A model generated the notes under the pieces. That model saw only the letters and a list, made by a program, of their open reading frames with translations. It had not been told where the DNA came from and ran no database searches. From the IMG/VR virus record IMGVR_UViG_3300013939_000002, positions 1-64,000 of that record: a DNA stretch of 64,000 nt; one strand, written 5' to 3'. Source of the stretch: a virus. Shown here piece by piece: positions 1,699 through 64,000 of this stretch. Every line of letters begins with the position of its first letter. The first letter of the stretch is position 1. Made by a program: the position numbers and the translations under genes.

Positions 1699-1943
1699 TG
1701 AGTCCAAGCACACGCAGATACAAAGAAGCTGTTAAAAGAGGGCAACAGGATGCTTATAGCGGAAAATATAATCCACCAGAACATTTTGATGAACGACAGC
1801 TGAGGTTGTATGACAAACACTATAATGAAACTAAGAATAAGTGTGAACAGATTGAATTAGATGCTGAATTTATGGCTAATGCTTATGGTTTCACTTATGT
1901 CCGAGATATTAATGGAAAATTTAAGTTGGAGAAATTAGATTGA
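1692..1943 (+). CDS. hypothetical protein
   Basis: Track ORF; start overlaps previous stop, stop overlaps ligase TTG start. Confidence 0.65.
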   Translation: MVMSPSTRRYKEAVKRGQQDAYSGKYNPPEHFDERQLRLYDKHYNETKNKCEQIELDAEFMANAYGFTYVRDINGKFKLEKLD

Positions 1944-4087
1944 AACAAATTGGAAAGACACTATACGCAGCAAACAAAGATGGCTCTGCCCAGCAATGGT
2001 CTGTGTTTGTTGATGGAAGTACTATAACTGTTGAATACGGAAAACATAACGGAAAATTGCAAACAAAACAGACAATTTGTGAATCAAAAAATGTTGGGAA
2101 GGTCAACGAGACAACACCAGAACAACAAGCAACCTTAGAAGCTGAGTCTAAATATCGTGATCAAATTCGTAAAGGTTATGTAGAATCAATTGATGATGTT
2201 TCGTTCTCTACAGATAAGACGCGGGTAATGCTTGCACAGGATGCTTCCAAGAAGCCACACTTTGTTAAATATCCGTGCCATACACAACCGAAACTTGACG
2301 GATGCTTTACGTACGCAACTAAAGTGCTGACTAATATCGGCTTGGTTTGCATTGGAGATATTGTAGAAAATAAAATGAAATTGTTGGTGCTCAGCTATAA
2401 CGAAAAAACTGAAAAATTAGAATATAAAAAGATTACCAACTATTTTAATAACGGATTAAAACAAAAAGAAGAGTGGTTACGTTTTGATAACAACGCCATA
2501 ACAAAAAATCATAAAATATTGACAGATGCAGGGTGGAAGCCTTATGGTGAGTCAAATCACATGTTATCACCAAATCCAAAGTATCTAGGTATTGTTTGTG
2601 GCATGCTACTCGGAGATTCTATTGCCAACATAGAAAAAAGAAATCTTTCTATTAACACACCCACATCGTGGAGGTTGGATTACAATGTAGGAGGAGAGGA
2701 TTTTCAGTATGGTTTAGAGAAATCAAAATTATTAAAAGATATTAGTTATAGATGTAGGGATAGGCTTTCTGGATATAACAAACCTTGTCAACAATACGTA
2801 TCTACCGCAATGACTAACAACTCTTTTCCTTTGTCAATATTCTACACAACAGATAAAACAGACGATAATTTCGGAAGGAGGGTTACGATTATAGACAGAA
2901 AATTACTGGAAAGTGTATTTACAGATGAGTCACTAGCATTATGGTATTTTGACGATGGTTCTTTGCACTACAATAACGGGAATAAAGAAACCCCAAGGAT
3001 GTTCTTAAGTGTCGCAAGGTACTCCGACGAGACAATAGAAGGTTTTGTGGAGCTTTTTAAAAAGAAGTACAATGTTACTCCATCACTAGGTTATTATGGA
3101 AAAGATAAACGACTTTCTTTCAATACAAAAGATTCTACTTATCTTTTTTGGAAAATATCAAGAATTGCCGGTAATTTGTTGCCTAGAAAAATACCAGAAG
3201 GTTTTAGTTGTGGTAGTATTGAACCACAAGACCAATTAATTAACATTACAATTGAACATAAAAATGCTTCTTTAGGTGGTTTACCGCAATTTGCATTTGA
3301 TATAGAAGTTGAAGATAATCACAATTACTTTGCTAATAATAAGCTGGTACATAATTGCCGCTCTTTAATCACTTTTGACGACAATGGAGAACCTGTATTT
3401 AATAGTCGTGGTGCTAAAGTTTATCCAAAACATGAACATTTAGCTGAACAACTAAAACAGTTGCGTTTAGAAACAGGATTTGATAGTTTTGATGGTGAAC
3501 TGTATGTTCACGGACTTCCGTTGCAAAAGATTGTAAGTCTAGTAAAGAAAGTTCAACCTGATAGTTCAAAACTTGAATATCGAATTTATGATATTCCAAG
3601 TGAAAAGGTTTGGTCTGAACGAGAAAAAGATTTGACAGAGTTATCAAAGCATGTTAAATTGAATATCTCTACAGTTCCTGTAACAGTTTGCAATAATGAA
3701 CAAGAAGCCAAAGAATCTATTCATGAGTATATGGAGCAAGGCTACGAAGGAACGATTCTGCGCAATATGAATGGAAAATACGAGTTTGGGCAACGAAGTA
3801 ATGATTTGCTAAAATGGAAAGTGTTTGAAAGCGATGAAGCTTTAGTATACGATGCTGAAATTGATAAAAATGGAGAAGGTGTTCTGCTGTGCAAAATGCA
3901 GAATGGAACAGAGTTTCGTTGCAAAATGAAAGGAACACACGAAGAGCGCCTATATGAAGAACAGTTGAAACTTGTTGGAAAATATATTACCTTTACTTAT
4001 CAAACCTTAACGGTTGATGGTGTTCCACAGTTTCCGGTTGGAATTTCTGTGCGAGAATTAAATGAAAATTGGGAACCTTTAGAATGA
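1940..4087 (+). CDS. ATP-dependent DNA ligase, intein-containing precursor (715 aa; mature about 364 aa)
   Basis: Motif I KLDG (aa 118-121) followed by a Cys-initiated insert; after ...LVHN the extein resumes CRSLITF; downstream ligase motifs SFDGELY, EGTILR, LLKWK. Confidence 0.9.
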   Translation: MKQIGKTLYAANKDGSAQQWSVFVDGSTITVEYGKHNGKLQTKQTICESKNVGKVNETTPEQQATLEAESKYRDQIRKGYVESIDDVSFSTDKTRVMLAQDASKKPHFVKYPCHTQPKLDGCFTYATKVLTNIGLVCIGDIVENKMKLLVLSYNEKTEKLEYKKITNYFNNGLKQKEEWLRFDNNAITKNHKILTDAGWKPYGESNHMLSPNPKYLGIVCGMLLGDSIANIEKRNLSINTPTSWRLDYNVGGEDFQYGLEKSKLLKDISYRCRDRLSGYNKPCQQYVSTAMTNNSFPLSIFYTTDKTDDNFGRRVTIIDRKLLESVFTDESLALWYFDDGSLHYNNGNKETPRMFLSVARYSDETIEGFVELFKKKYNVTPSLGYYGKDKRLSFNTKDSTYLFWKISRIAGNLLPRKIPEGFSCGSIEPQDQLINITIEHKNASLGGLPQFAFDIEVEDNHNYFANNKLVHNCRSLITFDDNGEPVFNSRGAKVYPKHEHLAEQLKQLRLETGFDSFDGELYVHGLPLQKIVSLVKKVQPDSSKLEYRIYDIPSEKVWSEREKDLTELSKHVKLNISTVPVTVCNNEQEAKESIHEYMEQGYEGTILRNMNGKYEFGQRSNDLLKWKVFESDEALVYDAEIDKNGEGVLLCKMQNGTEFRCKMKGTHEERLYEEQLKLVGKYITFTYQTLTVDGVPQFPVGISVRELNENWEPLE
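2303..3355 (+). mobile_element. intein (351 aa) with LAGLIDADG homing-endonuclease domain, inserted in ligase motif I
   Basis: Starts CFTYATKVLT (block A), TKNHKILT (block B TxxH), LAGLIDADG-like LLGDSIANIEK and WYFDDGSL, ends DNHNYFANNKLVHN followed by +1 Cys. Confidence 0.9.
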
Positions 4088-10573: not shown

Positions 10574-11842
10574 ATGGAGAGCAATTTGAATAATAATTTT
10601 TATAATGGTGTTATTTCTAAGATTGTAGAAATGAAGAGCAAAGGTATTGGTAGTCGCGCCATTGCTAAAGAGTTAGGTATTGGTAAGTCAACTGTAAATC
10701 AGTATTATAATCATTGGTGCAATGAGCAACAAGAATGCAACGAGAAAGACCAAGTTAAAACACAAGACAGTTTTGAAGACAACCTTGACATCTTGTGCGA
10801 ACACCCTGACTTTTCTGTTTCAAATCTGGCAAAGCGCCTACGCTCTGCACACAGAACTAACACACAGTTACGAAAGATTCAACGGGAGATTACAGATACG
10901 GAGTATAATTTCAAGGAAATGCTGGAAGGTGTTAACAAAGCTGTATCTAAAGTTAAAGTAACGCAGTTTGATAAAAGTTTGTTTGAACGTCCCGACATTC
11001 CTAATACAACAAATAAACATGGAACCTTTGAGATTTTGTTTTCTGATTGGCAGATAGGAAAGATTGGACAACATTATAACACACCTGTTGCAATCAAAGC
11101 GTTAAAACAGTATGGTTGCGAATTGTTAGGTATTGTAAGTCGGAAGATATTGTTTACTGATAAAATTGTGTTTGCAAGTCTTGGTGATATCGTAGAAGAC
11201 CACATGAAGCACGGTATTCAATCTGCTACCGCTTGTGATTCAGGACTATCAGAACAAATCTCTAATGCAATTGTTAATATCTGGGAAAATGTTTTAGAAC
11301 CAATCTTGAAATTAGGTATTCCGACCGAATTTGTTGGTGTCGCAGGAAATCATGGATCTAGCCAACATAAAGGGATGGATATCTATAAAGCAGGTTTGTA
11401 TTCTTACGATTACATTATTTATACTGCACTCAAACAACTTGCAAAAACAGGCGGTTATACAAACGTTACTTTTAATATCCCAGAAGGTGTGTTTGCACAT
11501 ACTGAAATCTATGGAAACACTGTTATCTACGAACACGGATATTTCAACAGTGCAACTGAGAAAAGTATGCACGACCAGATGAAAAAACGGGGACAACAAA
11601 TCAAGAAACATGTAGAATATTTCCGTTGCGGCGACATGCATCACCAGTGTTCATATGATTCTCATAAGTTGGTTTTGAATGGTGCGTTCTTTGGTATTGA
11701 TAATTTGGGTGTAGAGTATTCTGGTGTGTTAGGGTTCAGTTCTGTTCCTGCTCAAGCAGTTATGTGGCACCAACCTGAATCAAATGTTGGAAAAAGTTCA
11801 GTCAAAGAGTTTCATACAATCCAACTTGCAATTGTTGAATAA
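10574..11842 (+). CDS. HTH domain fused to calcineurin-like metallophosphoesterase (Mre11/SbcD-like)
   Basis: N-terminal GSRAIAKELGIGKSTVNQY helix-turn-helix; phosphoesterase motifs FSDWQ, LGDIVED, VAGNHG, CGDMHH. Confidence 0.7.
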   Translation: MESNLNNNFYNGVISKIVEMKSKGIGSRAIAKELGIGKSTVNQYYNHWCNEQQECNEKDQVKTQDSFEDNLDILCEHPDFSVSNLAKRLRSAHRTNTQLRKIQREITDTEYNFKEMLEGVNKAVSKVKVTQFDKSLFERPDIPNTTNKHGTFEILFSDWQIGKIGQHYNTPVAIKALKQYGCELLGIVSRKILFTDKIVFASLGDIVEDHMKHGIQSATACDSGLSEQISNAIVNIWENVLEPILKLGIPTEFVGVAGNHGSSQHKGMDIYKAGLYSYDYIIYTALKQLAKTGGYTNVTFNIPEGVFAHTEIYGNTVIYEHGYFNSATEKSMHDQMKKRGQQIKKHVEYFRCGDMHHQCSYDSHKLVLNGAFFGIDNLGVEYSGVLGFSSVPAQAVMWHQPESNVGKSSVKEFHTIQLAIVE

Positions 11843-20474: not shown

Positions 20475-22837
20475 GTGAGTATTAGTGTAATTAATAAACA
20501 CGGAAATATTAATGGTTGGAGTGACCAGAAAATTTATAATGCTGTAAATAAAGCAGCAGAACGAGTCAACAAGCGACTATCAGAAACAGAGTTACAAACT
20601 TTACGCGAATCAGTTAAATCTAAAGTTTCATCAGAGATTCATGTTTCTAATCTGCACAACATTGTTTCTCAGACATTAATTCAATTGGGATACAAAGATA
20701 TTGCTGAATCTTACATGGCTTATCGAAACTATAAAACTAATTTTGTTAAGTTGTTAGACGATTTATATCAGAAGGCACACACACAGCAATTACACACGGG
20801 GATAAAGAGAATGCTAATTTTGAGTCATCTCTTATCTCAACAAAACAAGCATTGATTCGGGGATATTTAACCAAAGAACTTTATAAACTTCACTATTTAA
20901 CAAAAGAAGAACGGGAAGCTATTGAAACTGGTTTCATATATTTTCACGATTTGCGCGACCTAATTTTTAACGGTTTTAACTGCTGCCTTTTGATATGGGT
21001 AATGTTTTGAATGGTGGTTTTGAGATGGCTAATCTCAAATATTCAGAACCCTCTAATGTTTTAAGTTGTTTGCAAGTTATTGGAGATGTAACTTTATCAG
21101 CTTCAGCACAATCTTTTGGTGGGTTCACAATCCCAGATATTGATAAAATTCTAGTTCCTTATATTAAGAAATCCATTGTTCGTTATGGGAAAGAAGCTGT
21201 TGATTTCGGAATTGATAATCCATATAAGTATGCGTTATACAAAACAAACAATGACCTAGAACAAGGCTTCCAAAGTCTTGAAATGAAGTTGAACAGTGTA
21301 ACAAGTAGTCGTGGCGACTATAGTTTTGTAACGTTAACTTTTGGTAATCTTGATGTCCCTGATGATCGTCAATATCAGGTCATGGCTTGTAAAGCAATCT
21401 TGAAAAATCGCAAACGTGATAACCCTGTTGTTTTTCCAAAACTGGTGCATTTGTTTAGTTGGGAACAATACGAAAATGTTCCAGAAGCAGCAGAATTATT
21501 TGATTTATGTATTGACTGTTCTTGTAAAGCATTGTATCCAGACTATTTAGCAATTGATACAGTAGGGAAAGTTGCAGAAGCATATAAAAAGAGCAAAAAA
21601 GTAATAAGTCCGATGGGCGAACTATAATACAAAGTCGCGTGATTACCCATCTAAAACCTATCTAAAACGGGAACCTCTCTGAAATGAGACAATCCGTTGC
21701 TAAATGGATAAAATCCTAAATGCCCAACGACTAACCGTGATGAGTGTAGCGGTGTAGGACAGAAGCTAATGCTGTTCCAAATGGTAGGCCATAACAATAA
21801 AAGTTATGGAAGATATAGTCTGATCTGCATGGTGACATGCAGCAGTTCATTAGAGAACGGGAGAGGCCTTGCGAACCTCTCTGAACAAAATGTGTCGCGC
21901 ATTCCTGTCTGAATTTTCAGATGAAAACGGAGAAATATTCTTTACAGGTAGAGCAAACATAGGCGCTGCTTCTTTGAATCTTCCTATGATTTATATGAAA
22001 GCCTTAGAAGAAAACCTTGATTTTTATGAAACATTGGATTATTATTTAAACCTGATTCGGGAGTTTTTGAAGAAACGTTATGTTGCGGTTGCAAACAACA
22101 AAGCCAGCACCAATCCTTTGTGTTTCACACAAGGTGGTCTTGCAGGTGGAAACCTAAAACCAGACGAAAAGATTGGTGATATTGTTAAAAGTTTTACAGC
22201 TTCTTTTGGTATCACTGCTTTAAACGAACTGAATTATCTGCACGAGCAGAAACAGTTGCACGAATCAGATAAACGTTTTGTTAATGAAGTTATTGATTTC
22301 ATTTCTGAACGTGTAGAGACTTTCAAGAAAGAAGATGGACATCTTTATGCATTGTATGGAGTTCCTGCTGAATCGCTTGCTGGAACACAGCGCGAACAGT
22401 TTGTAGCTAAGTATGGCATTATTAAAGGTGTTTCAGATAAAGCATACTTTAGCAACAGTTTTCACTGTCATGTAACAGCAGAGATTTCACCATTTGAGAA
22501 ACAAGACCAAGAATATGAATTGTTCCATAAAATTAACGGTGGGCATATTCAATATACACGAGTAGATACAACAAAACCAAATGTCGTTAAGGGAATTGTT
22601 CTTCGTGGCATGAGTATGGGATTCTATTCTGGAATCAATGCCAATAAATGTTTCTGTGAAGATTGTGGTTGGTCGCCAGAAAAGGATATTGAAGTTGATA
22701 AATGTGAAAACTGTGGTAGTCTAAATATTCTTGAAATTAACCGAGTTTCAGGCTATCTTGGTTATTCAAAACAAAAACAAAACACACGTTTCAATGATGC
22801 TAAAATGGCAGAATTGAAAGATCGTATTAGTATGTAA
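20475..22837 (+). pseudogene. nrdD: anaerobic ribonucleotide reductase NrdD: three frames in exon 1 (two apparent frameshifts) plus a group I intron
   Basis: ATP-cone (20475-), DKENAN...FIYFHDLRD...NCCL in a second frame, MGNVLNGGFE...ISPMG in a third (to 21618), exon 2 CRAFLSEF... to the C-terminal CxxC...CxxC and RVSGYLG glycyl-radical region. Confidence 0.85.
21619..21892 (+). ncRNA. group I (T4 td/nrdD-like, IA2-type) self-splicing intron, no internal ORF
   Basis: Splits ISPMG|CRAFL; contains CTATCTAAAACGGGAACCTCTCTGAAATGAGACAATCCGTTGCTAAAT and ATATAGTCTGA..ATGGTGACATGCAGC..CTGAACAAAATG, near-matches to the T4 td intron core; ends in G. Boundaries +/- a few nt. Confidence 0.85.
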
Positions 22838-37782: not shown

Positions 37783-38718
37783 TTAACTTTTAATTTCAGA
37801 TAATAAATTATAAAAATCAACAGCGGCAAGGTTTTTGTTCTTTGCTTCTATCATAACATCAAAACGATCTAAAAATTGTGCTGTATACTTAACCAACTCT
37901 TTGTCTGTAATGGTATCAGAATGTGCCCAGATATCACGCTTGCTGCCCGTCAAGTCTCTAGCTTGTGACAAGTGTAATTTTGGTCTGGTGCCGTTCCATG
38001 TTTCAATAACTGAATCTAAACGAGAATCATTAACACCTAGATAATAGCCAGTATTACAAAAATAATGATGTAAATCTAAAACACAACGCACATTGTATTG
38101 CTGGCAAGCCTTCAGAACACGGTCTAGATTGCCTGTCTTCTCGTCATTTTCTAAACTTAGGTAACGTTTAAAGTCGGAGATTTCGTTAACGGGTAGTGTA
38201 TCTAGTCGTCCATTAAAATGAATATTAATAACACTGTCTGACGGTTTTCCTAATAATTCTAGGATTTCGTATTGGAAGTGTAATGTTCTGATAGAATTTG
38301 TGACTGTTTGATTAGATTCACTGTTCAAAACGGTATATTGGCTTGGATGCAAGCTAATTCGAATATTGTGTTGTTGAATTGTTTTTCCGATGTTGTCTAA
38401 ATTGTAGGCGATCAACTGCCACAGTTGTGCATCATAAAGCTGCCCAAGGTCTGGATGATCAACCAAAGGCAGTAAGTTAGAACTAATGCGAAACATCCGC
38501 AAATGTTGTGGAAGCCTAGAGACATAAGAGATCTGTAAACTTAATGCACGCAAATTCTGTTTAACTTTTGAAACAAGTTTATCGTACTGTGCACTATCAG
38601 ATAATTTACTGATACCTGAAACTGTAACTGTACCAATTGTGGTATCTGGCAATTGTTTAAAAGTGTCCTTAACAATAGATCCAACTTGACAAGCAAAACC
38701 GATTTTATAATTGTGCAT
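37783..38718 (-). CDS. UV damage endonuclease (UvdE/UvsE-like, TIM barrel)
   Basis: FRISSNLLPLVDHPD, RISLHPSQYTVLNS, SVINIHFNG, LSLENDEKT, LDLHHY, PKLHLSQA and DVMIEAKNKN parallel conserved UvsE blocks. Confidence 0.85.
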   Translation of the reverse strand: MHNYKIGFACQVGSIVKDTFKQLPDTTIGTVTVSGISKLSDSAQYDKLVSKVKQNLRALSLQISYVSRLPQHLRMFRISSNLLPLVDHPDLGQLYDAQLWQLIAYNLDNIGKTIQQHNIRISLHPSQYTVLNSESNQTVTNSIRTLHFQYEILELLGKPSDSVINIHFNGRLDTLPVNEISDFKRYLSLENDEKTGNLDRVLKACQQYNVRCVLDLHHYFCNTGYYLGVNDSRLDSVIETWNGTRPKLHLSQARDLTGSKRDIWAHSDTITDKELVKYTAQFLDRFDVMIEAKNKNLAAVDFYNLLSEIKS

Positions 38719-42516: not shown

Positions 42517-43569
42517 TTATTTATTCCAACATAAATCTTGAACTTCCATCAACACTTTAGCAGCTAGATTAACATCTACGCTTTTTGGCAGATGAGATTG
42601 TTTGTATAGAGTCTCACGGATTAATTTGTCCTTTTGTTCTGCAAAATCAAGGATGTCTTCATAAGACCATAGTCCGTTTCGGATATCCAGCAACTCCTGA
42701 GCATCAGGTCGTTTAACATTAACAACCCCATCTCGGAGGATTTCTTCTCCCATCCGGCACAAACGAACCACGTGCATTGCGTGTTTTGTATCAAACCCGT
42801 ACTTCTCTTCTAGTTCACTTCTTGTTTCGTTTCGGTTTGTTTTCCAAGTCCAATAGTTTTTGTGTGTTTCCTTGGCTACTTTATATTCTTCTTCACATAA
42901 CTTTACAATCATCAACGGATTTTGTTTCTTTTGGTCATCTGTGAAAGATTCATAATCAAACTTCTTAATTGAACCATCAGCATTGCAAGTATTACTTCCT
43001 TTGGAATAAATTAATCCAAAAATATCATTTCCATAAGGAATCAAAAGATAATCTTTGTTATAGTAACGTAAGTTAAAATCTTTTGCTCTGATATTCTCCG
43101 GCATAAAATTATACTGAAGCTTAACAAAATCAACACGAACAGGAGATTGCTCTGGTTGAGGATTATTGATCCACTTGTTGTGTCCTTTAATTCGCTTCAT
43201 TTGTTGCAAAGCATAGCCTGTAAAAGTAAAAGCTACTTTCTTTGATAACAATTTAGGTGCATAATAATGCAATGCTTTATAGGCTTCAGTTGTTTCTAAG
43301 ATGTCTTGATTGTCTACCCACAACAATTCTAAAATGTTAGGGTTCATATCACAATACAATTTCATAAAGTTTGTTAACTCATACATCTTACCGTCTTCTT
43401 GATCTTCCAGATTAACTTCTCGTACTGGAAAGAATGGTGTACGAATATTACGTTCTTCTGTACAGAAAATACCACGCACATCAACGTCACTCAAGGGCGT
43501 GTTTGTACCATAGGCATGAGATCCACCTAAACAAACAACAATCTTATTGTCAATATCTTTCATTTCCAT
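42517..43569 (-). CDS. Pol-beta-fold nucleotidyltransferase (RlaP / RNA-repair-associated type)
   Basis: CLGGSHAYGTNTPLSDVDVRGIF fits GSxxYG..SDxDxxG of the RlaP-type NTase family; start overlaps the stop of the CCA enzyme gene. Confidence 0.65.
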   Translation of the reverse strand: MEMKDIDNKIVVCLGGSHAYGTNTPLSDVDVRGIFCTEERNIRTPFFPVREVNLEDQEDGKMYELTNFMKLYCDMNPNILELLWVDNQDILETTEAYKALHYYAPKLLSKKVAFTFTGYALQQMKRIKGHNKWINNPQPEQSPVRVDFVKLQYNFMPENIRAKDFNLRYYNKDYLLIPYGNDIFGLIYSKGSNTCNADGSIKKFDYESFTDDQKKQNPLMIVKLCEEEYKVAKETHKNYWTWKTNRNETRSELEEKYGFDTKHAMHVVRLCRMGEEILRDGVVNVKRPDAQELLDIRNGLWSYEDILDFAEQKDKLIRETLYKQSHLPKSVDVNLAAKVLMEVQDLCWNK

Positions 43570-44777
43570 TTATTCTTTACTCCTCTGATTGCATCAATTT
43601 TGGCAACACGGATTGCTTCACCAATATCTTTTCCTGATTTTCCTTTAGCTAACATAGTAGCAGAAATAATCTTTGTGTCAACAGACTTAACAGCATCTAA
43701 GCACTCAATTAGAAACTGTTTTTGTGTATAAGGAATTTCTGAGAGATAATCACCACGCCCTTTTGCATCTGATTCACAAACATCTAAGAATTTGTAAAAT
43801 CTATCTGTTTTTGTTTCAGCTTTAACATTTTCAAATAATTTATAAATTGATTTTGGTTTCATGTTAAAAGCCATATGAACATGGGTATGGTACTTACAAC
43901 AAATCAAACCTAACTCTTTGAATTTATTTGGAATCTTGAAAGTCTTGCAGAAATCTTCTACAAACTTGACACCTTCTTCTTCGTGTCCGTGCAGATTTTT
44001 AAAATTATTGTAACAATATGCTTTCCCAAAATCATGAACTAAAGCACCAAAGACAACTCCAACATCCCTATAGGCATTTGCAGCATGGTCAACACACATC
44101 ATAATATGAGTCCAAACACAACCTTCTGGATGATGTTGGATTGGTTGTGGAATATTAAATTGGCTGTCTAATGTTTCAAAAATACCAAACTGTTTTAGAA
44201 ATTCAAAATAATTTGAAGGTTTGTTTTCAGATAATCCTTTTTCTGTTTCTAACCAGATCCTTTCTTTAGGTAGATATTGAATCTCATCTTTAACTTTGTG
44301 GCATAAATCTACCAATTCTTCGGATGCCTTGAAATCTGGATACCTAGCTAAAAATCTTGCTGCCCTTAACACACGCAAAGGGTCTTCACAAAAAGAATTT
44401 GTTGTAGGTCTTAGTGTTTTATTTTTAATATCATCGGCACCGTTAAAAGGATCAACAATTTCGTCTGTTTCTAAACACATGGCTATTGCATTGATTGTTA
44501 AATCTCTTCGTGCTAAATCTTCTTCTAATGTGACATCTTTCCCGAAATAACAATCGAAACCTTGGTATCCAACGCCACTTTTCTTTTCAGTCCTAGCCAA
44601 AGCATATTCTTCTTTTGATTCTGGATGCAAAAAGACTGGAAAACTGGAACCTACTTGTTTAAAACCAAGAGCAATCATATCTTGTGGTTCAGCACCTACA
44701 ACAACATAATCTCGGTCTTTTGGTTCTTTGTTCATCAGTTTATCTCGAACAGCACCACCTACTAAATAAACTTTCAA
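43560..44777 (-). CDS. cca: tRNA nucleotidyltransferase (CCA-adding enzyme) with HD domain
   Basis: MKVYLVGGAVRDKL..DRDYVVVG..FPVFLHP..EEYALARTEKKSG..RRDLTINA near-collinear with E. coli Cca; HD motif ALVHDFGK. Confidence 0.95.
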   Translation of the reverse strand: MKVYLVGGAVRDKLMNKEPKDRDYVVVGAEPQDMIALGFKQVGSSFPVFLHPESKEEYALARTEKKSGVGYQGFDCYFGKDVTLEEDLARRDLTINAIAMCLETDEIVDPFNGADDIKNKTLRPTTNSFCEDPLRVLRAARFLARYPDFKASEELVDLCHKVKDEIQYLPKERIWLETEKGLSENKPSNYFEFLKQFGIFETLDSQFNIPQPIQHHPEGCVWTHIMMCVDHAANAYRDVGVVFGALVHDFGKAYCYNNFKNLHGHEEEGVKFVEDFCKTFKIPNKFKELGLICCKYHTHVHMAFNMKPKSIYKLFENVKAETKTDRFYKFLDVCESDAKGRGDYLSEIPYTQKQFLIECLDAVKSVDTKIISATMLAKGKSGKDIGEAIRVAKIDAIRGVKNKWK

Positions 44778-44786
44778 AATATTCTC

Positions 44787-46052
44787 CTAATATTTAATAT
44801 CAACCTTGCAGTTCACATCAGTCCCTAACCGCTCTCTAAAGGCAAAGTGCATTGTTTGTTTCAATTCTTCTTGATAATCAACAGGAATAATAAAACTATC
44901 ATGAATGCTTATGCAGGCAACCGATCTTTGTGTAAAATAGTTCAGAACAGAATCAGCAATAGCACTATCGACTCCTTGCAAGCGCAAACCAACAACAGCT
45001 TCTGAAATAAAAGTTTCATACAGATACGGATTCTTGTCAATAATTGCATATAACAATTCATCAACTTCAATATAAATTTTAGGAATTTTGTTTTCTTGGT
45101 ACAACTGTTTAATATCTAAATTGTTTCCAATCCAGTGATTCATAGCAAGTTTGTATGAGGAATCACTATTGCAGTTTAGTCGAATCAACATTGCCATCTT
45201 AGCCAGTTTCCGAAGTGTCTTAGGTTCATACCCTTTCATTTCAATATCATAAGGATCAAAACCTTCTGGAAAAATATAACCTGCTTCAGTAGCTAGGATC
45301 GTTGGGTGCAATGCAACAAAATCTAACTCTGTGACCTTTGAACCATTGATTGTTAATTTGGATCGTTCTTCAGAAGATAATGACTGCACAACAGCCTTGT
45401 CGTTATAGAATCGACCACCTTTATCAAAGCTATCATTGAAGATTCGGCGAGCATTAACAAACAGTTTCTCACCTTTTTCATTTCGGATATCAAAATCAGC
45501 TAGTGTTTTATTGTACATTCGTAAACCCTTAAGCATTTGTTGTGTGGTAGCAGTTGATGTAAACGTCTTAGGTTTCTTGTTTTCATCACGCAAAATCAAA
45601 ACATTCTCGATTGTTGGAATCTCTGCATCTTGCAATAATGTGAATAGATTCTCATAAATATAATCAGATAACACCAGAACAGATTGTTTGAACTTTGTTT
45701 CACCATATTCATTATACCCACAAAATCCACCAACATCAACAATACATCCACATTCTTCCAGAACTTTTAGGAATAGTTTAAAACTCTGATAGTCAATTGG
45801 TGTTGATTTGGACTTCTGTCCATTAATAACAAAACGTTCACTGAATCTTGTTTTGTCAAGTATGATGGGTAGTTCACGGCAACCTAACAGTATTGGTTTT
45901 GTTAGATTATAAATCAGACAATTGCATACTTGTTTTATTTGTTTAATTTTTAAATCATTAAGTTTAGTTGTATTGTAAGTATTGAATAATTGTAATAACC
46001 ACTCTGCTGCTGGTTTACTATGTTTACTAATTGTTTTAGCTAATAAGAACAT
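44787..46052 (-). CDS. 421-aa protein with Pol I / T7-RNAP-type polymerase palm motifs (function unknown)
   Basis: DKGGRFY (aa 210-216), ELDFVALHPTILA (D244), RKLAK (281-285), ISIHDSF (382-388) in canonical T/DxxGR-A-B-C order. Confidence 0.5.
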   Translation of the reverse strand: MFLLAKTISKHSKPAAEWLLQLFNTYNTTKLNDLKIKQIKQVCNCLIYNLTKPILLGCRELPIILDKTRFSERFVINGQKSKSTPIDYQSFKLFLKVLEECGCIVDVGGFCGYNEYGETKFKQSVLVLSDYIYENLFTLLQDAEIPTIENVLILRDENKKPKTFTSTATTQQMLKGLRMYNKTLADFDIRNEKGEKLFVNARRIFNDSFDKGGRFYNDKAVVQSLSSEERSKLTINGSKVTELDFVALHPTILATEAGYIFPEGFDPYDIEMKGYEPKTLRKLAKMAMLIRLNCNSDSSYKLAMNHWIGNNLDIKQLYQENKIPKIYIEVDELLYAIIDKNPYLYETFISEAVVGLRLQGVDSAIADSVLNYFTQRSVACISIHDSFIIPVDYQEELKQTMHFAFRERLGTDVNCKVDIKY

Positions 46053-46240
46053 TGTACCTCATACTAAATAAATATTGTGTGTTACAGTAATACTAATATT
46101 AAATATAAATACTAAAAAAAAAACAAGATAAGAGACACTCTCCTACATGTTAAGGAGCATTTTGGTATGCTAACCCGCACGGCACTAGGCTTTGCGGCTG
46201 AAAAAGCGGCAATATTTTTGCTAAGTTTAACCAGTATACT

Positions 46241-46444
46241 TTACTCTGTTTCTTCTTGCTCCCATTTGCTCTTTTTCTGTGGTTTTAACTTTTTAAGTTC
46301 GTTCTCTACGGCCTCCCAAAACAGAAATCGGCCTTTGTTGTGTGCTGTGTTCTTTTGCACTTGTGCTTTCAAGATAGCTTTCTGGATTGTTTCATAACGT
46401 TCTACATAAGAAGCAACAGCCTCTTCTACAGAATAGTATGCCAT
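46241..46444 (-). CDS. hypothetical protein
   Basis: Track ORF; own promoter upstream. Confidence 0.55.
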   Translation of the reverse strand: MAYYSVEEAVASYVERYETIQKAILKAQVQKNTAHNKGRFLFWEAVENELKKLKPQKKSKWEQEETE

Positions 46445-46477: not shown

Positions 46478-46506
46478 ATTATATCATAAAACTAACAAAT
46501 ATTCAA
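46478..46506 (-). promoter_or_regulatory. sigma70-like promoter TTGAAT-17-TGaTATAAT
   Basis: Minus strand hexamers at 46506-01 and 46483-78. Confidence 0.75.
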
Positions 46507-53966: not shown

Positions 53967-54328
53967 TTCTTTCTATCCTCTTTGCCATAAGCATAAATCT
54001 TATTGCATAACTGTTTCTTATAAGTCTTAAACAAACTGTCAATTTCAGAATCAGAGAATCCATAGACCATTTGCAAGTATGCGCGATCTTCATCACAGAC
54101 ACCTTTAATGTTGAAACGTGTCAAACTGTTCTTTAGTGTATCCACCCTGTGCTGATATTCTTCCCTAATCTCAGTGGCATCTAACCACCACACACCTCTG
54201 TATTCGGGAAGTCTTATCGGTAATCCACACTTAATAACAAAAGCCTCTCCCACTAAAATGTCATACCCTTCCTTTCTATATTCATCTGACATAGAAGATT
54301 CCTTATTCTGCATATCGATCATATTCAA
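53951..54328 (-). CDS. hypothetical protein
   Basis: Track ORF. Confidence 0.6.
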   Translation of the reverse strand: MNMIDMQNKESSMSDEYRKEGYDILVGEAFVIKCGLPIRLPEYRGVWWLDATEIREEYQHRVDTLKNSLTRFNIKGVCDEDRAYLQMVYGFSDSEIDSLFKTYKKQLCNKIYAYGKEDRKKWHRS

Positions 54329-55784
54329 TATATTTAAAACTTAAATCACCAAAAACATGTTCCATATTTCTTTCTGTTGAGACAATAATAACTTGTTTTT
54401 CAAATTGTTTCCATTGTTCTTTATTCAAATTAAAATAACAGTCTGTAAAGATAACAATACGATCTGACTTCTTTAACTTCTGTGATTTCAGGAAAGGCAA
54501 CAAACAATCTGGTGCTGTGCCACCACCCCCAACGAACTCATAATCCGATGATTCACGTTTGTTTTTCTTTGTATAAACTCGCAAACTATCCTGATAGAAT
54601 TGTGTATCCCAACAGCCTACTGTTAATTCAAAAGATTTATACATATCCATAATGCCTAACGTTTCAGATAACATCATGGTTCGTTCTCGGTTTCCAATGC
54701 TTCCAGACATATCATAAAACACAAATGCACGTGCCATAGGTTCAGGTTTCTTTCCTGCTTTATACAAGCCAAGACGACTATCTAACATATTATTCTGGTG
54801 CATAAAGTTTGTTAATCCATGAATATTTCGGCACAGTTTCTTTGGATCTTTCTCTGATTTAACCAACCCTGTTAACGTTTTGCGCAAGATTCGTTTCCAA
54901 TTAATAACTGGTTTTTGTGCCTTGAGTTTTTCTAACAACGAACCACCACAACCTTTTCCGATTTCTTTTGCTGTCTTAACAAAAGCATCACGAAGTCGGC
55001 TGTTGTTTAATTCTACACTGCTATCAGGATTAGAACCATTAGCACTATCTTTTGACTCTTCTGAACCTTCCATTGGTTTATCTGGCAAACCAAGAACATC
55101 ACGAATATAACGTTCTAAATCAGAAGGTTTGTTTGAACCTCCCATATTTCCATCAGAACCGTACATATGGTCATCTAATGGTTGCCCTTCTTTGCCTTTA
55201 TTCTGTTGCTGTTGTTGCAACAAATCTTCATAGATTTTCTCTGAGAACCAACTTTCAGGGACATACTTTTCATCAAAACATAATAGTTTAAAAACAGGTT
55301 CGGCTTTCATAGCTGCTGCATAACTTCCATAAATTAATTTGGCTGCATCAGCATTGATTCGATAATCTGCTGCTTGGTTGAATAGTTGTTTATCTCGTGT
55401 TCCAACACGAACAAAATGATCATGCAAACAATGCCCAATCTCATGCACAAAGCCAAACTGCAAGAAAGATTGTGATTTCTTGCTATACATTAACTTAAAC
55501 TTATCTTCTGATTCTTGATTCCAGAAAGGGCTTTGACGCGACTCAAGAACCAACTTATCTAATTGCTTTTGTTCTAAACCCAAGACAAACAACGGATTAA
55601 AATACAGATAAGAGCCATCTGTTGCAAAGGTTGGAAGATAATCTACGGCTTTGAGTTGCAAGTTTGTAGAAACAATCCCATAAAGTTTAATATCTTCTTT
55701 CTTGTGATTAACCATTCCCAAACGTGTTCCACGCAACAAGACCGTTGCATCATCAATCTGTTTTTCTGTGATTTCAATTTTCAT
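54303..55784 (-). CDS. metallopeptidase-like domain fused to a VWA domain (DUF2201-type MoxR partner)
   Basis: HEIGHCLHDH zinc motif in the N-terminal half; MIDAS-like VFYDMSGSIG in the C-terminal half. Confidence 0.8.
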   Translation of the reverse strand: MKIEITEKQIDDATVLLRGTRLGMVNHKKEDIKLYGIVSTNLQLKAVDYLPTFATDGSYLYFNPLFVLGLEQKQLDKLVLESRQSPFWNQESEDKFKLMYSKKSQSFLQFGFVHEIGHCLHDHFVRVGTRDKQLFNQAADYRINADAAKLIYGSYAAAMKAEPVFKLLCFDEKYVPESWFSEKIYEDLLQQQQQNKGKEGQPLDDHMYGSDGNMGGSNKPSDLERYIRDVLGLPDKPMEGSEESKDSANGSNPDSSVELNNSRLRDAFVKTAKEIGKGCGGSLLEKLKAQKPVINWKRILRKTLTGLVKSEKDPKKLCRNIHGLTNFMHQNNMLDSRLGLYKAGKKPEPMARAFVFYDMSGSIGNRERTMMLSETLGIMDMYKSFELTVGCWDTQFYQDSLRVYTKKNKRESSDYEFVGGGGTAPDCLLPFLKSQKLKKSDRIVIFTDCYFNLNKEQWKQFEKQVIIVSTERNMEHVFGDLSFKYIEYDRYAE

Positions 55785-56652: not shown

Positions 56653-57825
56653 TTATGCTGCTTGTTTCATCAAATCTTCAAACTGTTTGTTGAACTGTGT
56701 ATACTTAACCAAAATATTTGTGAAAGTTGGGCAACCTTGGCGGATTTGCATCAAGAAACTATCATTGTTTGTTTCTTTGCCCAGATTGGAAAGTTTTCCA
56801 ACCATACTAACCATAATCTCTTGTTCTTCAATCAAATTGTTTGACAAGAAATTAACAAAGTTGACACCTTGTTTAACTGCTTTATCTTTATCAGATGTCA
56901 ATGTTTGTCGCAAATGATACAGACAACTATTGAGAACACTATAAATCCCTGCTAAACCAACAGTTTTAACATCAATCTTTCCGTTAAACATTCCTTCCAG
57001 AATCACATCAGCTCGTGGAAGTTTAATACTGCTTTCATATTTAGGCCAAACTTTCAAGAACTTGTTATCACCAATAACACCGTTAATCCCCACTTCCATA
57101 ATTTTTTGTGAGATATGCCCTGCTTGATAAGCATAACAAATATCGCTGGCTTTCTTCATAGAACGACCTGATGCAAAACTTGGGCAATCTGTTTTAGAAC
57201 CATACTCATAAAGTTCATCAGGAAAATCGTAAACATATTCATAAATAGCTGGATGAATATTAACAAGACTTGCATAATCTTCCCGCCAATGATCTGCTAA
57301 TGGTTCCAATTCACAAATAATCAGACGGTTTGCTAATGGCCCTAGAAGTTCTGTTGATTCTCCTGCATCATGAATCCGGTTTCCTGCAAGAACAACTTGC
57401 ATTTTAGGAGGCAAAGCGTAATTGCCCACTTTGTGTTCATGCGTAATCTGATATAACAAGTGTTGCATATCCGTATCAACAATGTTAGTAACTTCATCCA
57501 AGAACAAGATGCCTTCCCACTTTGGATCAAGAGGAATCAATGTAGGTCGGGAATGTCGCATAACAACATCATCACCAACCAATGTTGGGACACCTTGACC
57601 AACCAAATCTGTTACAGAATAGTGGCTTAGGATAAGTGTACAAATATTCCCGTTATATTCTTTTTGAGCAAATTGGTTTGTAATTTCTGTCTTGCCACAA
57701 CCCGCTGGACTAAGAATACATACAGTACTTTTAATCTCTTTCCCCATTTTCAACACATCAAACATATCTCGTGTATTGATTCGAGTTTCAAACAACCAGT
57801 TTGTCTTTTTAGAATTGTTGCTCAT
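56653..57825 (-). CDS. MoxR/CbbQ-type AAA+ ATPase
   Basis: Walker A SPAGCGKTE, Walker B ILFLDEV, sensor region LAGNRIHD. Confidence 0.85.
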   Translation of the reverse strand: MSNNSKKTNWLFETRINTRDMFDVLKMGKEIKSTVCILSPAGCGKTEITNQFAQKEYNGNICTLILSHYSVTDLVGQGVPTLVGDDVVMRHSRPTLIPLDPKWEGILFLDEVTNIVDTDMQHLLYQITHEHKVGNYALPPKMQVVLAGNRIHDAGESTELLGPLANRLIICELEPLADHWREDYASLVNIHPAIYEYVYDFPDELYEYGSKTDCPSFASGRSMKKASDICYAYQAGHISQKIMEVGINGVIGDNKFLKVWPKYESSIKLPRADVILEGMFNGKIDVKTVGLAGIYSVLNSCLYHLRQTLTSDKDKAVKQGVNFVNFLSNNLIEEQEIMVSMVGKLSNLGKETNNDSFLMQIRQGCPTFTNILVKYTQFNKQFEDLMKQAA

Positions 57826-61669: not shown

Positions 61670-61984
61670 ATGTTTGTTGATTTTAGTTTTCATTCCCGAC
61701 ATCTAGAAGAAATTGTTTGTGTTGAAGCAGAGATTGATTATAAGACACCAGAACCAAACAACGATGCCAGTGATCATGACAATTATGGTGGCTTTATTAT
61801 CAATACTATTGAACTTTACAACCAAGGATCTAATCCACAGCGAATTTATGCAACATCTGAAAAACAACGAGAACTATTGGATCTTGAAGTTCGTGCACAA
61901 TTGAACAAACATGTTCGAAGTTTAGATGTTGAAACTTGTCTGTATGATATGGATGTTCCTTTCTTGTTTGGAGAAGATGAATAG
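61670..61984 (+). CDS. hypothetical protein
   Basis: Track ORF. Confidence 0.6.
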   Translation: MFVDFSFHSRHLEEIVCVEAEIDYKTPEPNNDASDHDNYGGFIINTIELYNQGSNPQRIYATSEKQRELLDLEVRAQLNKHVRSLDVETCLYDMDVPFLFGEDE

Positions 61985-63258
61985 TGGAATCTAACAAACC
62001 ACAAGATCCTTTTAGTTTGATGGGAACAGGGCAGAATTGTTTGATTGTAGGAAGCGGTGGTTGTGGAAAAAGCACACTAATTAAGACGCATATGGATTTC
62101 TTTGGTGATAATACATTGCTTTCTGCTCCTACTGGAATTGCAGCATTTAATGTTAATGGTTCTACAAACCACAAATCATTTGGTTTAGGTTTTGATGTTT
62201 TCAAACAAGATTCTGTTTTGTCACTTAAAAAGAAGAAACACATCAAAGAGGTTCTATCATCTAGAGCATTAATGACATGGATCGGTGATGAAGTCGGAAT
62301 GTTAAGAGCAGACAAACTTTCTGAGATTGACAGAATTCTTAAACATTACCGGAATAACAATGAACCTTTTGGTGGAATCCAAGTCTGTTTGTTTGGAGAT
62401 CCTTTGCAACTAACACCTATCTTGAAAGATAATGAGAAACGAGATTTCTATGATAATTATAGATCTCCTTATTTCTTTGACAGCCCTGCTTTCATTGAAG
62501 CAAACTTTCAAGTTCTTAAGTTGCAAACTGTTTATCGACAATCTGACCCAGAACAAATAAAAGCTCTTAATAATCTGAGGCTTGGAGAAAACTTAAAAGA
62601 AACACTAGAATTTTTTAATGATGTCTGTTATAATAACAAATCTCGCAATCCAGAGGCATTAACATTGGCTGCACGGAATGCAGAAGTCGATGCTATTAAC
62701 GGTTATGAGCTATCAAAGATTAATTCTCCACCGCAAAGCTACTATGCTAAGCGCCTTGGAGATTTCAAAGAAACACCTGTTCCAGAACAGTTAGCATTAA
62801 AAGTTGGTTGTCGTGTTATGATTTGTGTTAACAGCATTGATTCTAGTGAACCTTATTTCAATGGCTCTTTGGGAACAGTCAAGAAAATCAACAGAGATTC
62901 TGTTATTGTAACCTTAGATGATTCTGGAAAGGATGTTTATATTGATAGTTATACTTGGTACAATGTTGAGAAACGTCATAGCAAGCGTCACAACAAGCTT
63001 GTAGACCATAGAGTAGGTGAGTATCAACAGTTGCCTTTGCGCCTCGCATATGCGATTACAGCTCATAAATCACAAGGATTAAGCTTACCTTCTGGTTTTG
63101 TTGATTTAGGCAACAAACCTTTGTTTGCAACAGGACAAAGTTATGTTATATTGAGTCGGTTTACAGATTTGGAGAATGTTTGTTTTAGCCGACCATTAAC
63201 AAAACTGGATGTTAAATTAGACAGATACCTTATTGATTGGTATAACAGTATCGGGTAA
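61984..63258 (+). CDS. SF1 DNA helicase (Dda/RecD/Pif1-like)
   Basis: GTG start; Walker A GSGGCGKST, LFGDPLQLTPI, YAITAHKSQGLS. Confidence 0.9.
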   Translation: MESNKPQDPFSLMGTGQNCLIVGSGGCGKSTLIKTHMDFFGDNTLLSAPTGIAAFNVNGSTNHKSFGLGFDVFKQDSVLSLKKKKHIKEVLSSRALMTWIGDEVGMLRADKLSEIDRILKHYRNNNEPFGGIQVCLFGDPLQLTPILKDNEKRDFYDNYRSPYFFDSPAFIEANFQVLKLQTVYRQSDPEQIKALNNLRLGENLKETLEFFNDVCYNNKSRNPEALTLAARNAEVDAINGYELSKINSPPQSYYAKRLGDFKETPVPEQLALKVGCRVMICVNSIDSSEPYFNGSLGTVKKINRDSVIVTLDDSGKDVYIDSYTWYNVEKRHSKRHNKLVDHRVGEYQQLPLRLAYAITAHKSQGLSLPSGFVDLGNKPLFATGQSYVILSRFTDLENVCFSRPLTKLDVKLDRYLIDWYNSIG

Positions 63259-63289: not shown

Positions 63290-64000
63290 ATGAGTAAAGA
63301 TTCAGGATCGATGATTGGTCACTATCATTGTATTGCAAATGAGGTTGAAGGAAAACGAGGGTGTGCAAGCGGAGACGCTTTAGCTGTATATGAGCATATT
63401 ACTGATTCAGGAGTTGAATATGACGGATACTGTTATTCATGCTGTCAGCACTTTACAGTATCACAAGTTCATAATTCATCAGTTGCTGTTAATTTGGGTA
63501 TCAAAGATGGAGTTGTTGTAGACAAGAAAAACTTCATTCGTAAACCAAAAGCCGAACCAATTACACTTGAAGAAGCAAAGAACTTTATTAAAAAAATTGG
63601 TTATTTTTCCAACGGTTATCGTGGAATTAAGGATGAATACAATAAGTTCTTTGGTCATTTGACTAAAGTCGATTCTAATGGTGTAGTGATCGCACAATAT
63701 TATCCAGAAACACAAGACGGAAAGATCGTAGGTTACAAATGTCGTAATCATCCCAAAGATTTCCGTTATGGTAAACTCGGTCAAACAGGCATAATGTCAG
63801 ATTTAAGTGGTGAAGTTAAATTTAAATCTGGCGGTAAATACGTTTTAATTGTTGGTGGTGAATGTTATTCCGAAGACACCGAAGTTTTAACAGTAAATGG
63901 TTGGAAGTTTTTCAAAGACTTATCATCAGATGACCTTGTTATGCAGGTGAATAACGGAATTGGTCAGATGGTGAAACCTTTAAGTTATATTAAAAAAGAA
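63290..64000 (+). CDS. T7 gp4-like DNA primase(-helicase), 5' part, interrupted by an intein; runs off the window
   Basis: ATG 63290 after AAGAGGATTAA; frame open to the window end (not in track); Zn finger HYHC..C....CYSCC, YRGIKDEY, Toprim YVLIVGGE. Confidence 0.8.
   Translation, partial: MSKDSGSMIGHYHCIANEVEGKRGCASGDALAVYEHITDSGVEYDGYCYSCCQHFTVSQVHNSSVAVNLGIKDGVVVDKKNFIRKPKAEPITLEEAKNFIKKIGYFSNGYRGIKDEYNKFFGHLTKVDSNGVVIAQYYPETQDGKIVGYKCRNHPKDFRYGKLGQTGIMSDLSGEVKFKSGGKYVLIVGGECYSEDTEVLTVNGWKFFKDLSSDDLVMQVNNGIGQMVKPLSYIKKE
63863..64000 (+). mobile_element. intein N-terminus inserted after the primase Toprim glutamate (partial)
   Basis: LIVGGE|CYSEDTEVLTVNGWKFFKDL matches the intein block A pattern C-x-x-x-D/T-x-V-L-T..G. 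Confidence 0.7.

Follow-up and report, generated by a model that had tools for sequence, protein, structure and literature searches.

A 64,000-nucleotide stretch of virus DNA (positions 1 to 64,000 of IMG/VR virus record IMGVR_UViG_3300013939_000002; hereafter the window) carries on its minus strand a gene whose 421-amino-acid (aa) product is supported, by structure prediction and motif alignment, as a very small palm-and-fingers core of the family A polymerases, the superfamily of Pol I and T7 RNA polymerase (RNAP), with a conserved active site. We regard it as likely that this phage protein is a TV-Pol-type enzyme. The fuller claim, that it is an active TV-Pol-type polymerase and probably a priming one, is favoured on balance, and by analogy its most likely function would be that of an accessory primase-polymerase, an assignment that we make tentatively. 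The gene is real, unannotated and of a known but barely studied kind; it represents neither a new fold nor a new principle. Its features are as follows, with conservation counts taken here and below from a family alignment of 246 sequences.

44787..46052, minus strand: coding sequence of 421 aa for the predicted stand-alone, minimal family A-like (TV-Pol-type) polymerase, from the list of open reading frames (ORFs), PHROG, AlphaFold2 and Foldseek
45453..46052, minus strand: N-terminal domain, aa 1-200, alpha/beta by secondary structure; conserved across the family, with G109 invariant
45405..45425, minus strand: DKGGRFY at aa 210-216, on a beta-hairpin whose strands are 201-206 and 213-217 by DSSP; R214 aligned by hhalign to Klenow R668 of the TGR motif
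45291..45329, minus strand: motif A, ELDFVALHPTILA, aa 242-254; D244 ends strand 238-245 and is aligned to Klenow D705 (DYSQIELR)
45249..45257, minus strand: DPY, aa 266-268, with a conserved fingers aspartate; D266 in 234/246 and Y268 in 242/246
45174..45212, minus strand: motif B or O-helix equivalent, aa 281-293, R281-x3-K285-x3-L289-x3-N293, within helix 277-291 (DSSP)
44964..44969, minus strand: D362-S363 of a conserved LQxxDS element, on the helix that precedes motif C; D362 in 235/246 and S363 in 203/246, family-specific
44892..44912, minus strand: motif C, ISIHDSF, aa 381-387, in a beta-turn-beta (381-383/386-390); H384-D385-S386 aligned to Klenow H881-D882-E883

An ATG preceded by a GAGG ribosome-binding site opens the reading frame, and the plus-strand reading of the same interval is riddled with stops. 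The initial annotation, made from the sequence alone, had described four polymerase motifs in canonical order. All four are present, each once in the protein, with RKLAK at aa 281-285 and with D244 and D385 correctly placed; motif C spans aa 381-387 and not 382-388 as first numbered. When the protein's own residues were shuffled 20,000 times, a loose pattern of the four motifs in order never arose. Conservation of the motifs among homologs, which had been proposed as a check, was borne out by the family alignment, where they are near-invariant. In motif A, D244 is retained in 246/246 sequences, E242 in 242/246 and H249 in 233/246, and in motif C, D385 occupies all 243 non-gap positions, with H384 in 235/246 and S386 in 240/246. 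The hairpin arginine R214 is found in 245 of the 246 sequences, and motif B is similarly constrained (R281, 243/246; K285, 245/246; L289, 217/246; N293, 243/246). Near-invariance extends beyond the positions first noted to R230 (246/246), Q223, E242, D266-P-Y268, N293 and D362-S363. The Phe and Tyr-Gly positions of the classical motif B (RxxxKxxxFxxxYG) are Leu289 and Asn293 here, alongside the nearly invariant R281 and K285; judged by spacing, N293 would occupy the place of Klenow Y766 and T7 RNAP Y639. H249 stands at the steric-gate position (Klenow E710), and E242 is a family-specific acidic residue two before the motif A aspartate.

AlphaFold2, supplied with the homolog alignment, gave a model with a predicted local distance difference test (pLDDT) score of 87.8 and a predicted template-modelling (pTM) score of 0.81. 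Searching this model against the PDB with Foldseek returned 101 matches at E<=0.001. All 50 of the 50 PDB matches listed, with E about 1e-6 and a probability of 1.0, were family A DNA polymerases, including apicoplast apPol, Bst, M. smegmatis Pol1, KlenTaq and Klenow, so that the similarity to the polymerase superfamily first suggested from motifs is upheld at the level of the predicted fold. The PDB matches have template-modelling (TM) scores of only about 0.3, as they share the C-terminal half alone and differ in the N-terminal part. In BFVD the top matches, with TM about 0.8, were members of the same family, one of which is named 'DNA polymerase' by UniProt (Barba31A), and ordinary phage PolA came next. 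By DSSP, R214 lies in the hairpin, D244 at the end of its strand, R281 and K285 on the long helix and H384-D385-S386 in the beta-turn-beta, a layout that in the model is the canonical palm topology.

The protein had been described as lacking a recognisable N-terminal domain; in the model, by contrast, some 200 N-terminal residues are folded, and they are conserved across the family. Folded alone, this domain had no significant fold match in the PDB, the best E being 0.33, with weak winged-helix-like matches only. It stands in place of the thumb and exonuclease region of Pol I, and may bind nucleic acid.

At the level of sequence profiles the same relationship was fainter. Pfam returned zero families at E<=10 for the query protein and 10 long homologs, NCBIfam gave no match, and searches of the PDB by sequence and by profile were empty. 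Alignment of the family with a Klenow/T7 gp5/TS9 PolA alignment by hhalign gave E values of 0.012 and 0.052 and probabilities below 5%. The profile search proposed at the outset was therefore empty in Pfam and weak in hhalign, yet it was collinear and in register with Klenow: R214 falls on R668, Q223 on Q677 (NLQNIP), D244 on D705, H249 on E710 and H384-D385-S386 on H881-D882-E883. Since the profile statistics are weak, the relationship to Pol I rests mainly on structure and motif register. Comparisons by hhalign with the single T7 DNA polymerase and T7 RNAP sequences were uninformative, with a probability of 0.1% for T7 RNAP.

Set beside Pol I (Klenow, Bst, Taq and T7 gp5; PF00476), the phage protein shares the palm-and-fingers fold, the register of motif 2 and motif A (TGR...LQ...R...DYSxxE/H), the alignment of VHDE with IHDS in motif C and the R-x3-K of the O-helix. 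It differs from Pol I in giving no PF00476 match, in having no exonuclease domains and in its much smaller thumb. The active site also departs from that of Pol I: the steric-gate Glu is replaced by His, Klenow Y766 by Asn and E883 by Ser, and the extra acidic E242 precedes the motif A aspartate.

The initial annotation knew of no described phage enzyme of this size class in this fold. That statement does not hold, given that the TV-Pols were described in 2008 (PMC2579912) and that one of them, CcPol, has been shown to be a DNA primase (PMC7581432). As defined by Iyer, Abhiman and Aravind, TV-Pols are proteins of 400-600 aa from viruses and mobile elements that consist of a minimal family A core without nuclease domains. 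An invariant Arg in a beta-hairpin, a pair of aspartates in the palm, and a conserved Asp together with RxxxK in the fingers mark the group, whose members often have a further domain at the N terminus. Their genes are linked to those of D5-like helicases or of a resolvase, lambda-type integrase or transposase, and the 2008 study predicted that the proteins act as primase-polymerases (PMC2579912). The family has been proposed as an ancestral-like minimal core of Pol I and of the T7-type RNA polymerases.

Every structural feature of the published TV-Pol definition is found in the phage protein. At 421 aa it falls within the size class and lacks nuclease or other Pfam domains, and it has the hairpin R214, the palm D244 and D385, the fingers D266 and R281/K285 and an extra N-terminal domain. 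Its relatives likewise occur in viruses and in integrase- or resolvase-linked elements of marine alphaproteobacteria and others. The published TV-PolN domain differs in being all-helical, whereas the N-terminal domain here is alpha/beta, and no D5-like helicase lies nearby in the sampled loci of the family studied here. None of the papers found mentions such a gene as an accessory of large virulent phages with a T7-type replisome of their own. By hhalign, the family of MAP_030, the candidate TV-Pol of cyanophage Ma-LMM01, is moderately linked to ours (probability 62%, E 7e-5, 248 columns); motifs A and C are in register, as are the hairpin and the O-helix K...N.

Together with its small partner MP, CcPol of SCCmec synthesises DNA primers de novo; its authors knew of no other characterised TV-Pol, and the CcPol branch is the only one to have been biochemically tested (PMC7581432). 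Like the CcPol-MP and PolA-SSB primases (PMC7581432; 10.1101/2022.12.02.518924), the phage protein is a small, mobile-element-borne and repurposed A-family polymerase domain. CcPol, however, requires the adjacent small oligonucleotide-binding (OB)-fold partner MP and sits in a helicase operon, neither of which is conserved beside the phage gene, and it comes from Firmicutes, whereas the family studied here is mainly proteobacterial and phage-borne. The CcPol-MP mechanism cannot simply carry over, because the helicase and a partner resembling single-stranded DNA-binding protein (SSB) were not found adjacent. A conserved small MP-like downstream partner was considered and rejected, as the ORFs of approximately 140 aa that follow the gene in PAc, Barba31A, ICP1 and bacterial loci bear no relation to one another.

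These comparisons allow us to propose how the enzyme might work. It would consist of a family-specific N-terminal domain of about 200 aa, the R214 beta-hairpin, a small palm and short helical fingers, without exonuclease domains or a long thumb. By homology with Pol I, D244 of motif A and D385 of motif C would carry out two-metal nucleotidyl transfer. E242 may serve as a third carboxylate in place of Pol I E883, which is Ser386 here, because it lies on the same strand face as the motif A aspartate. By the same analogy, R281 and K285, both on the counterpart of the O-helix, would bind the incoming nucleotide through its phosphates, and R214, Q223 and R230 would contact the primer-template. Short products of low processivity are expected because the exonuclease is missing and the thumb is reduced. 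Such an enzyme would be a primase-polymerase of low processivity, able to begin or restart DNA synthesis de novo, as was predicted for the TV-Pols and has been demonstrated for CcPol-MP. More speculatively, the N-terminal 200 residues might deliver the template as MP does for CcPol. The enzyme may use deoxyribonucleotides or ribonucleotides. Its gene would be a relative of the copies that accompany integrases in the bacterial islands described below.

Several observations weigh against reading the protein as a priming TV-Pol. As set out above, its link to Pol I is statistically weak by sequence. We infer that Ma-LMM01 MAP_030 (506 aa, beside IS605-type transposases) is the published TV-Pol of that phage, which leaves the connection to the published family a soft one, and a hidden Markov model search of the Ma-LMM01 ORFs (first 50 kb) gave no significant match to the family. 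In the loci sampled there is neither an adjacent D5-like helicase nor a conserved small SSB-like partner, and the phage already carries a primase.

The family to which the protein belongs is large and widely distributed. The protein matches phrog_4756 (E 5e-84), which PHROGs labels 'unknown function', and an exhaustive profile search recovered 10,506 cluster representatives (50% identity) at E<=1e-3, 4,779 of them at E<=1e-30; a single-protein scan of viral sequences gave no matches. Homologs are 380-703 aa long (median 501). By tblastn they occur in 282 phage records from Vibrio (including ICP1), Rheinheimera (the Barba phages), Aeromonas, Pseudoalteromonas and Shewanella, and all 40 of the 40 matches listed among these records were annotated as 'hypothetical protein'. 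The closest named homolog, at 58% identity, is that of Aeromonas phage vB_AdhM_TS9 (TS9; genus Plateaulakevirus), and a 98% identical protein is encoded on metagenomic contigs of 110-117 kb. PADLOC-DB had no match for the query or for four of five homologs, the fifth having one marginal and irrelevant match. A plasmid replication gene was considered and rejected, because plasmid-borne copies were found in only 4 of 72,556 records. PICMI and other marine satellite primases were likewise rejected as relatives, being of different families.

In bacteria, a scan of GTDB genomes found 373 relatives, mainly in Rhodobacterales, SAR116, Loktanella, Roseovarius and Sulfitobacter. These taxa overlap with those listed for TV-Pols, among them Loktanella, Roseovarius, Sulfitobacter and Paracoccus (PMC2579912). 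A tyrosine recombinase lies within 8 kb of the polymerase gene in 30 of the 38 bacterial loci of at least 15 kb, and the cargo between the two is variable, as exemplified by a KAP NTPase or a methylase with SNF2 and NOV_C. Around homolog P0013 the order is integrase, a 215-aa ORF, HNH_3, polymerase and Lamassu-like cargo; around P0016 it is integrase, resolvase, polymerase and a restriction-modification set of methylase and ResIII. No D5-like helicase was seen in the sampled bacterial loci. The bacterial gene context fits the TV-Pol description.

Bacterial genome and metagenome loci (L003, L004/L005, L012, L018 and L033) include islands of marine alphaproteobacteria in which the polymerase gene stands at one end and a tyrosine integrase, sometimes with a resolvase, stands opposite or alongside. 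Their cargo is defence-like and comprises Lamassu, methylase with SNF2 and NOV_C, KAP NTPase and restriction-modification genes. Integrase-polymerase islands of this kind could amount to a large group, so far unrecognised, of islands that prime their own replication or of phage satellites.

We also considered the protein in its phage setting. In TS9 the gene for a PIF1-like helicase directly precedes those for a primase-helicase that resembles T7 gp4 (E 3e-45) and for a 760-aa T7 gp5-like PolA. The window carries the same PIF1-like superfamily 1B (SF1B) helicase gene at 61984-63258 (plus strand) and, at 63305-63862 (plus strand), the start of a T7 gp4-like primase-helicase, of which the first ~186 residues are present before the gene runs off the window end at 64000. 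By synteny with TS9, a replicative T7-like DNA polymerase should lie just past the window end. The mini-polymerase is thus an extra polymerase and not the replicase of this roughly 110-kb virulent phage, the replisome being assigned by synteny with relatives, and the window holds no second copy of it. No origin-like repeats and no skew inflection were found at the polymerase gene; GC skew tracks the direction of transcription, and skew and gene orientation turn together near 33 kb and at 59-60 kb.

The cholera phage ICP1 offers a second phage setting, in which every isolate inspected carries a family member at one locus, in a form of either 434 or 553 aa. The 553-aa form is recognised by hhalign with a probability of 99.8. 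The 434-aa form carries R214K (GGR to NGK), H249E and N293Y and has YDE in place of HDS, with both aspartates kept. Both alleles (L002, 8806-10110; L097, 1517-3178) lie within a swapped cassette between GP97-type and GP103 genes, and in a CRISPR-bearing ICP1 isolate from 2017 the 434-aa allele is found at 57.7-59.0 kb. An early theta-replication peak has been placed 'near the 60 kb position' in ICP1, in the coordinates of that study's own isolate, so that the proximity of the gene to this ~60 kb peak, read across different isolates' coordinates, is a lead only. Origin firing in T7 is the job of T7 RNAP. It is conceivable, and in our view doubtful, that the mini-polymerase of ICP1-like and Plateaulakevirus-like phages is an origin-firing enzyme that, guided by its N-terminal domain, makes the first primer, of DNA or RNA, for theta replication, and that the swapping of ICP1 alleles reflects conflict with the PLE satellites that hijack ICP1 replication. 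If this were true, it would be the first demonstrated biological role of a TV-Pol outside SCCmec and a new mode of phage replication initiation.

The swapped ICP1 cassette, with its two very different alleles of 434 and 553 aa at one locus, also bears on a separate and unlikely explanation, in which the gene is a selfish or conflict passenger: either the replication gene of a small cassette that hops with homing endonucleases, or a factor in counter-defence or satellite conflict. Homing endonuclease genes stand directly downstream of the polymerase gene in TS9 (T5orf172) and in Vibrio phage 1.187.O (GIY-YIG), and HNH_3 stands upstream in a bacterial island. Defence cargo accompanies the bacterial copies, and the gene has no conserved neighbour among phages. 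The strict conservation of the catalytic residues argues instead for an enzymatic function under selection, and a PADLOC match is lacking. Homing endonucleases, moreover, typically adjoin important genes, and hence are not evidence of selfishness. A selfish origin and a priming activity are in any case compatible.

The protein could alternatively be a minimal single-subunit DNA-dependent RNAP, which transcribes a subset of phage genes or makes RNA for origin opening or priming as T7 RNAP does; we consider this fairly unlikely. The initial annotation leaned this way on the strength of GRxY and HDS only, and the motifs do recall the T7-like RNA polymerases (PF00940): GRFY after the hairpin Arg follows the form GR[FV]Y of the T7 RNAP sequence DWRGRVY, IHDSF in motif C is both the T7 form and the consensus of our family, and His249 stands where DNA polymerases have the steric-gate Glu. 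ICP1, reportedly equipped with a Pol I-type polymerase and a T7-like helicase-primase, is described as having 'no obvious RNA polymerase' (10.1101/639039), and each inspected isolate has a family member. Against this, neither the Pfam RNA_pol models nor T7 RNAP in hhalign gave a match. The structures that Foldseek listed from the PDB are DNA polymerases, motif A resembles that of Pol I in its DYSxLH, and Tyr639 is matched in position by Asn293. The protein is less than half the size of T7 RNAP (421 vs 883 aa), too small for the promoter-binding N-terminal domain or the specificity loop. The bacterial homologs reside in integrase islands, where a private RNAP would have no obvious use, and a sigma-70-like promoter precedes the phage gene. 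What stands of the original proposal is therefore a reduced member of the superfamily, a small family A core with a conserved active site, and not its lean towards T7 RNAP.

It is improbable that the protein is a repair or gap-filling DNA polymerase, for translesion synthesis or restart, which acts with the repair genes of the leftward gene block and not in initiation. The lack of proofreading and the reduced thumb would suit short-patch synthesis, UvdE is encoded on the same strand 6 kb further downstream, and the window encodes an intein-bearing DNA ligase elsewhere. The linkage to UvdE, however, is seen only in this phage lineage, the neighbours in the window do not recur beside the gene in other phages, and the bacterial homologs associate with integrases and not with repair genes. 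Still less probable is an RNA-end repair or tailing enzyme working on damaged tRNAs with the CCA-adding enzyme (PolyA_pol and HD) and RlaP encoded immediately after the gene on the same strand, given that neither neighbour is within 6 kb in the other phage loci examined, that the fold is that of a templated polymerase and that the window has no tRNA genes; the tRNA or tailing role entertained in the initial annotation thus finds no support in gene context.

With the accessory primase-polymerase as the preferred reading, the significance of the family lies in several directions. A branch of more than 10,000 clusters lacks a Pfam, NCBIfam or PADLOC model and is 'hypothetical' in the phage records inspected. 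It places an extra polymerase in virulent phages that have a T7-type replisome, among them the genetically tractable ICP1. Its active site departs from that of Pol I at the sugar-choice and metal positions, with a steric-gate His, an O-helix Tyr replaced by Asn, and ExD...HDS in place of D...HDE. The 18-year-old prediction that TV-Pols are primase-polymerases is now directly testable, and a very small polymerase scaffold could be a by-product.

Two further features lie upstream of the polymerase gene:

46241..46444, minus strand: ORF of 67 aa, with 53% identity to Aeromonas phage TS9 (L001, 694-876)
46478..46506, minus strand: sigma-70-like promoter match, TTGAAT-17-TATAAT with TG, scoring 10/12 in a consensus scan (pattern match only)

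The promoter match precedes both the 67-aa ORF and the polymerase gene, which possibly share a transcript. The 67-aa ORF is the sole neighbour shared with another phage, being common only to TS9. Between this ORF and the polymerase gene lie 188 nt (46053-46240, minus strand) with a small hairpin at 46140-46157 and, after it, a run of ten T, an arrangement that could act as an internal terminator or attenuator just before the ribosome-binding site of the polymerase gene.

Downstream of the polymerase gene, at 42517-44777 (minus strand), a CCA-adding enzyme gene (405 aa, with a PolyA_pol head, RNA-binding and HD regions and a TTG start) overlaps that of an RlaP-family 'RNA repair' nucleotidyltransferase (350 aa), and the two are a probable tRNA/RNA-repair pair; ARAGORN found no tRNA gene in the 64-kb window. 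Both genes are absent within 6 kb of the polymerase gene in TS9, three IMG/VR relatives (57% identity), ICP1, Barba31A, Vibrio phage 1.187.O and PAc, so that the pair adjoins it only in this phage lineage. A UvdE-type ultraviolet-damage endonuclease, an unusual phage cargo, is encoded at 37783-38718 (minus strand; Pfam E 6e-41) within the same leftward block of genes. A functional link of the polymerase to the CCA-adding enzyme, RlaP or UvdE was rejected, as the adjacency is not conserved in the other phage loci examined.

Elsewhere in the window, an intein that contains a LAGLIDADG homing endonuclease interrupts the 715-aa ATP-dependent DNA ligase at 1940-4087 (plus strand; Pfam matches Intein_splicing, LAGLIDADG_2, DNA_ligase_A_M and DNA_ligase_OB_2). 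At 54303-55784 (minus strand) is a putative DUF2201 metallopeptidase of 493 aa that has a VWA-like domain; a 390-aa dynein-related AAA_5 ATPase, recognised by a weak match, is encoded close by (56653-57825, minus strand), and the two resemble a MoxR/VWA-type pair in the early region of the phage. Among the nucleotide-metabolism genes, a 422-aa ORF at 10574-11842 (plus strand), with weak N-terminal matches to HTH_7 and IS1-type helix-turn-helix domains only, may encode a transposase- or homing-endonuclease-like DNA-binding protein. A group I intron at 21601-21842 (plus strand; RF00028, 70.6 bits, E 7e-16) splits nrdD, the anaerobic ribonucleotide reductase gene, into ORFs at 20995-21627 and 21869-22837 (plus strand), which cover positions 65-263 and 263-560 of the Pfam NRDD profile.

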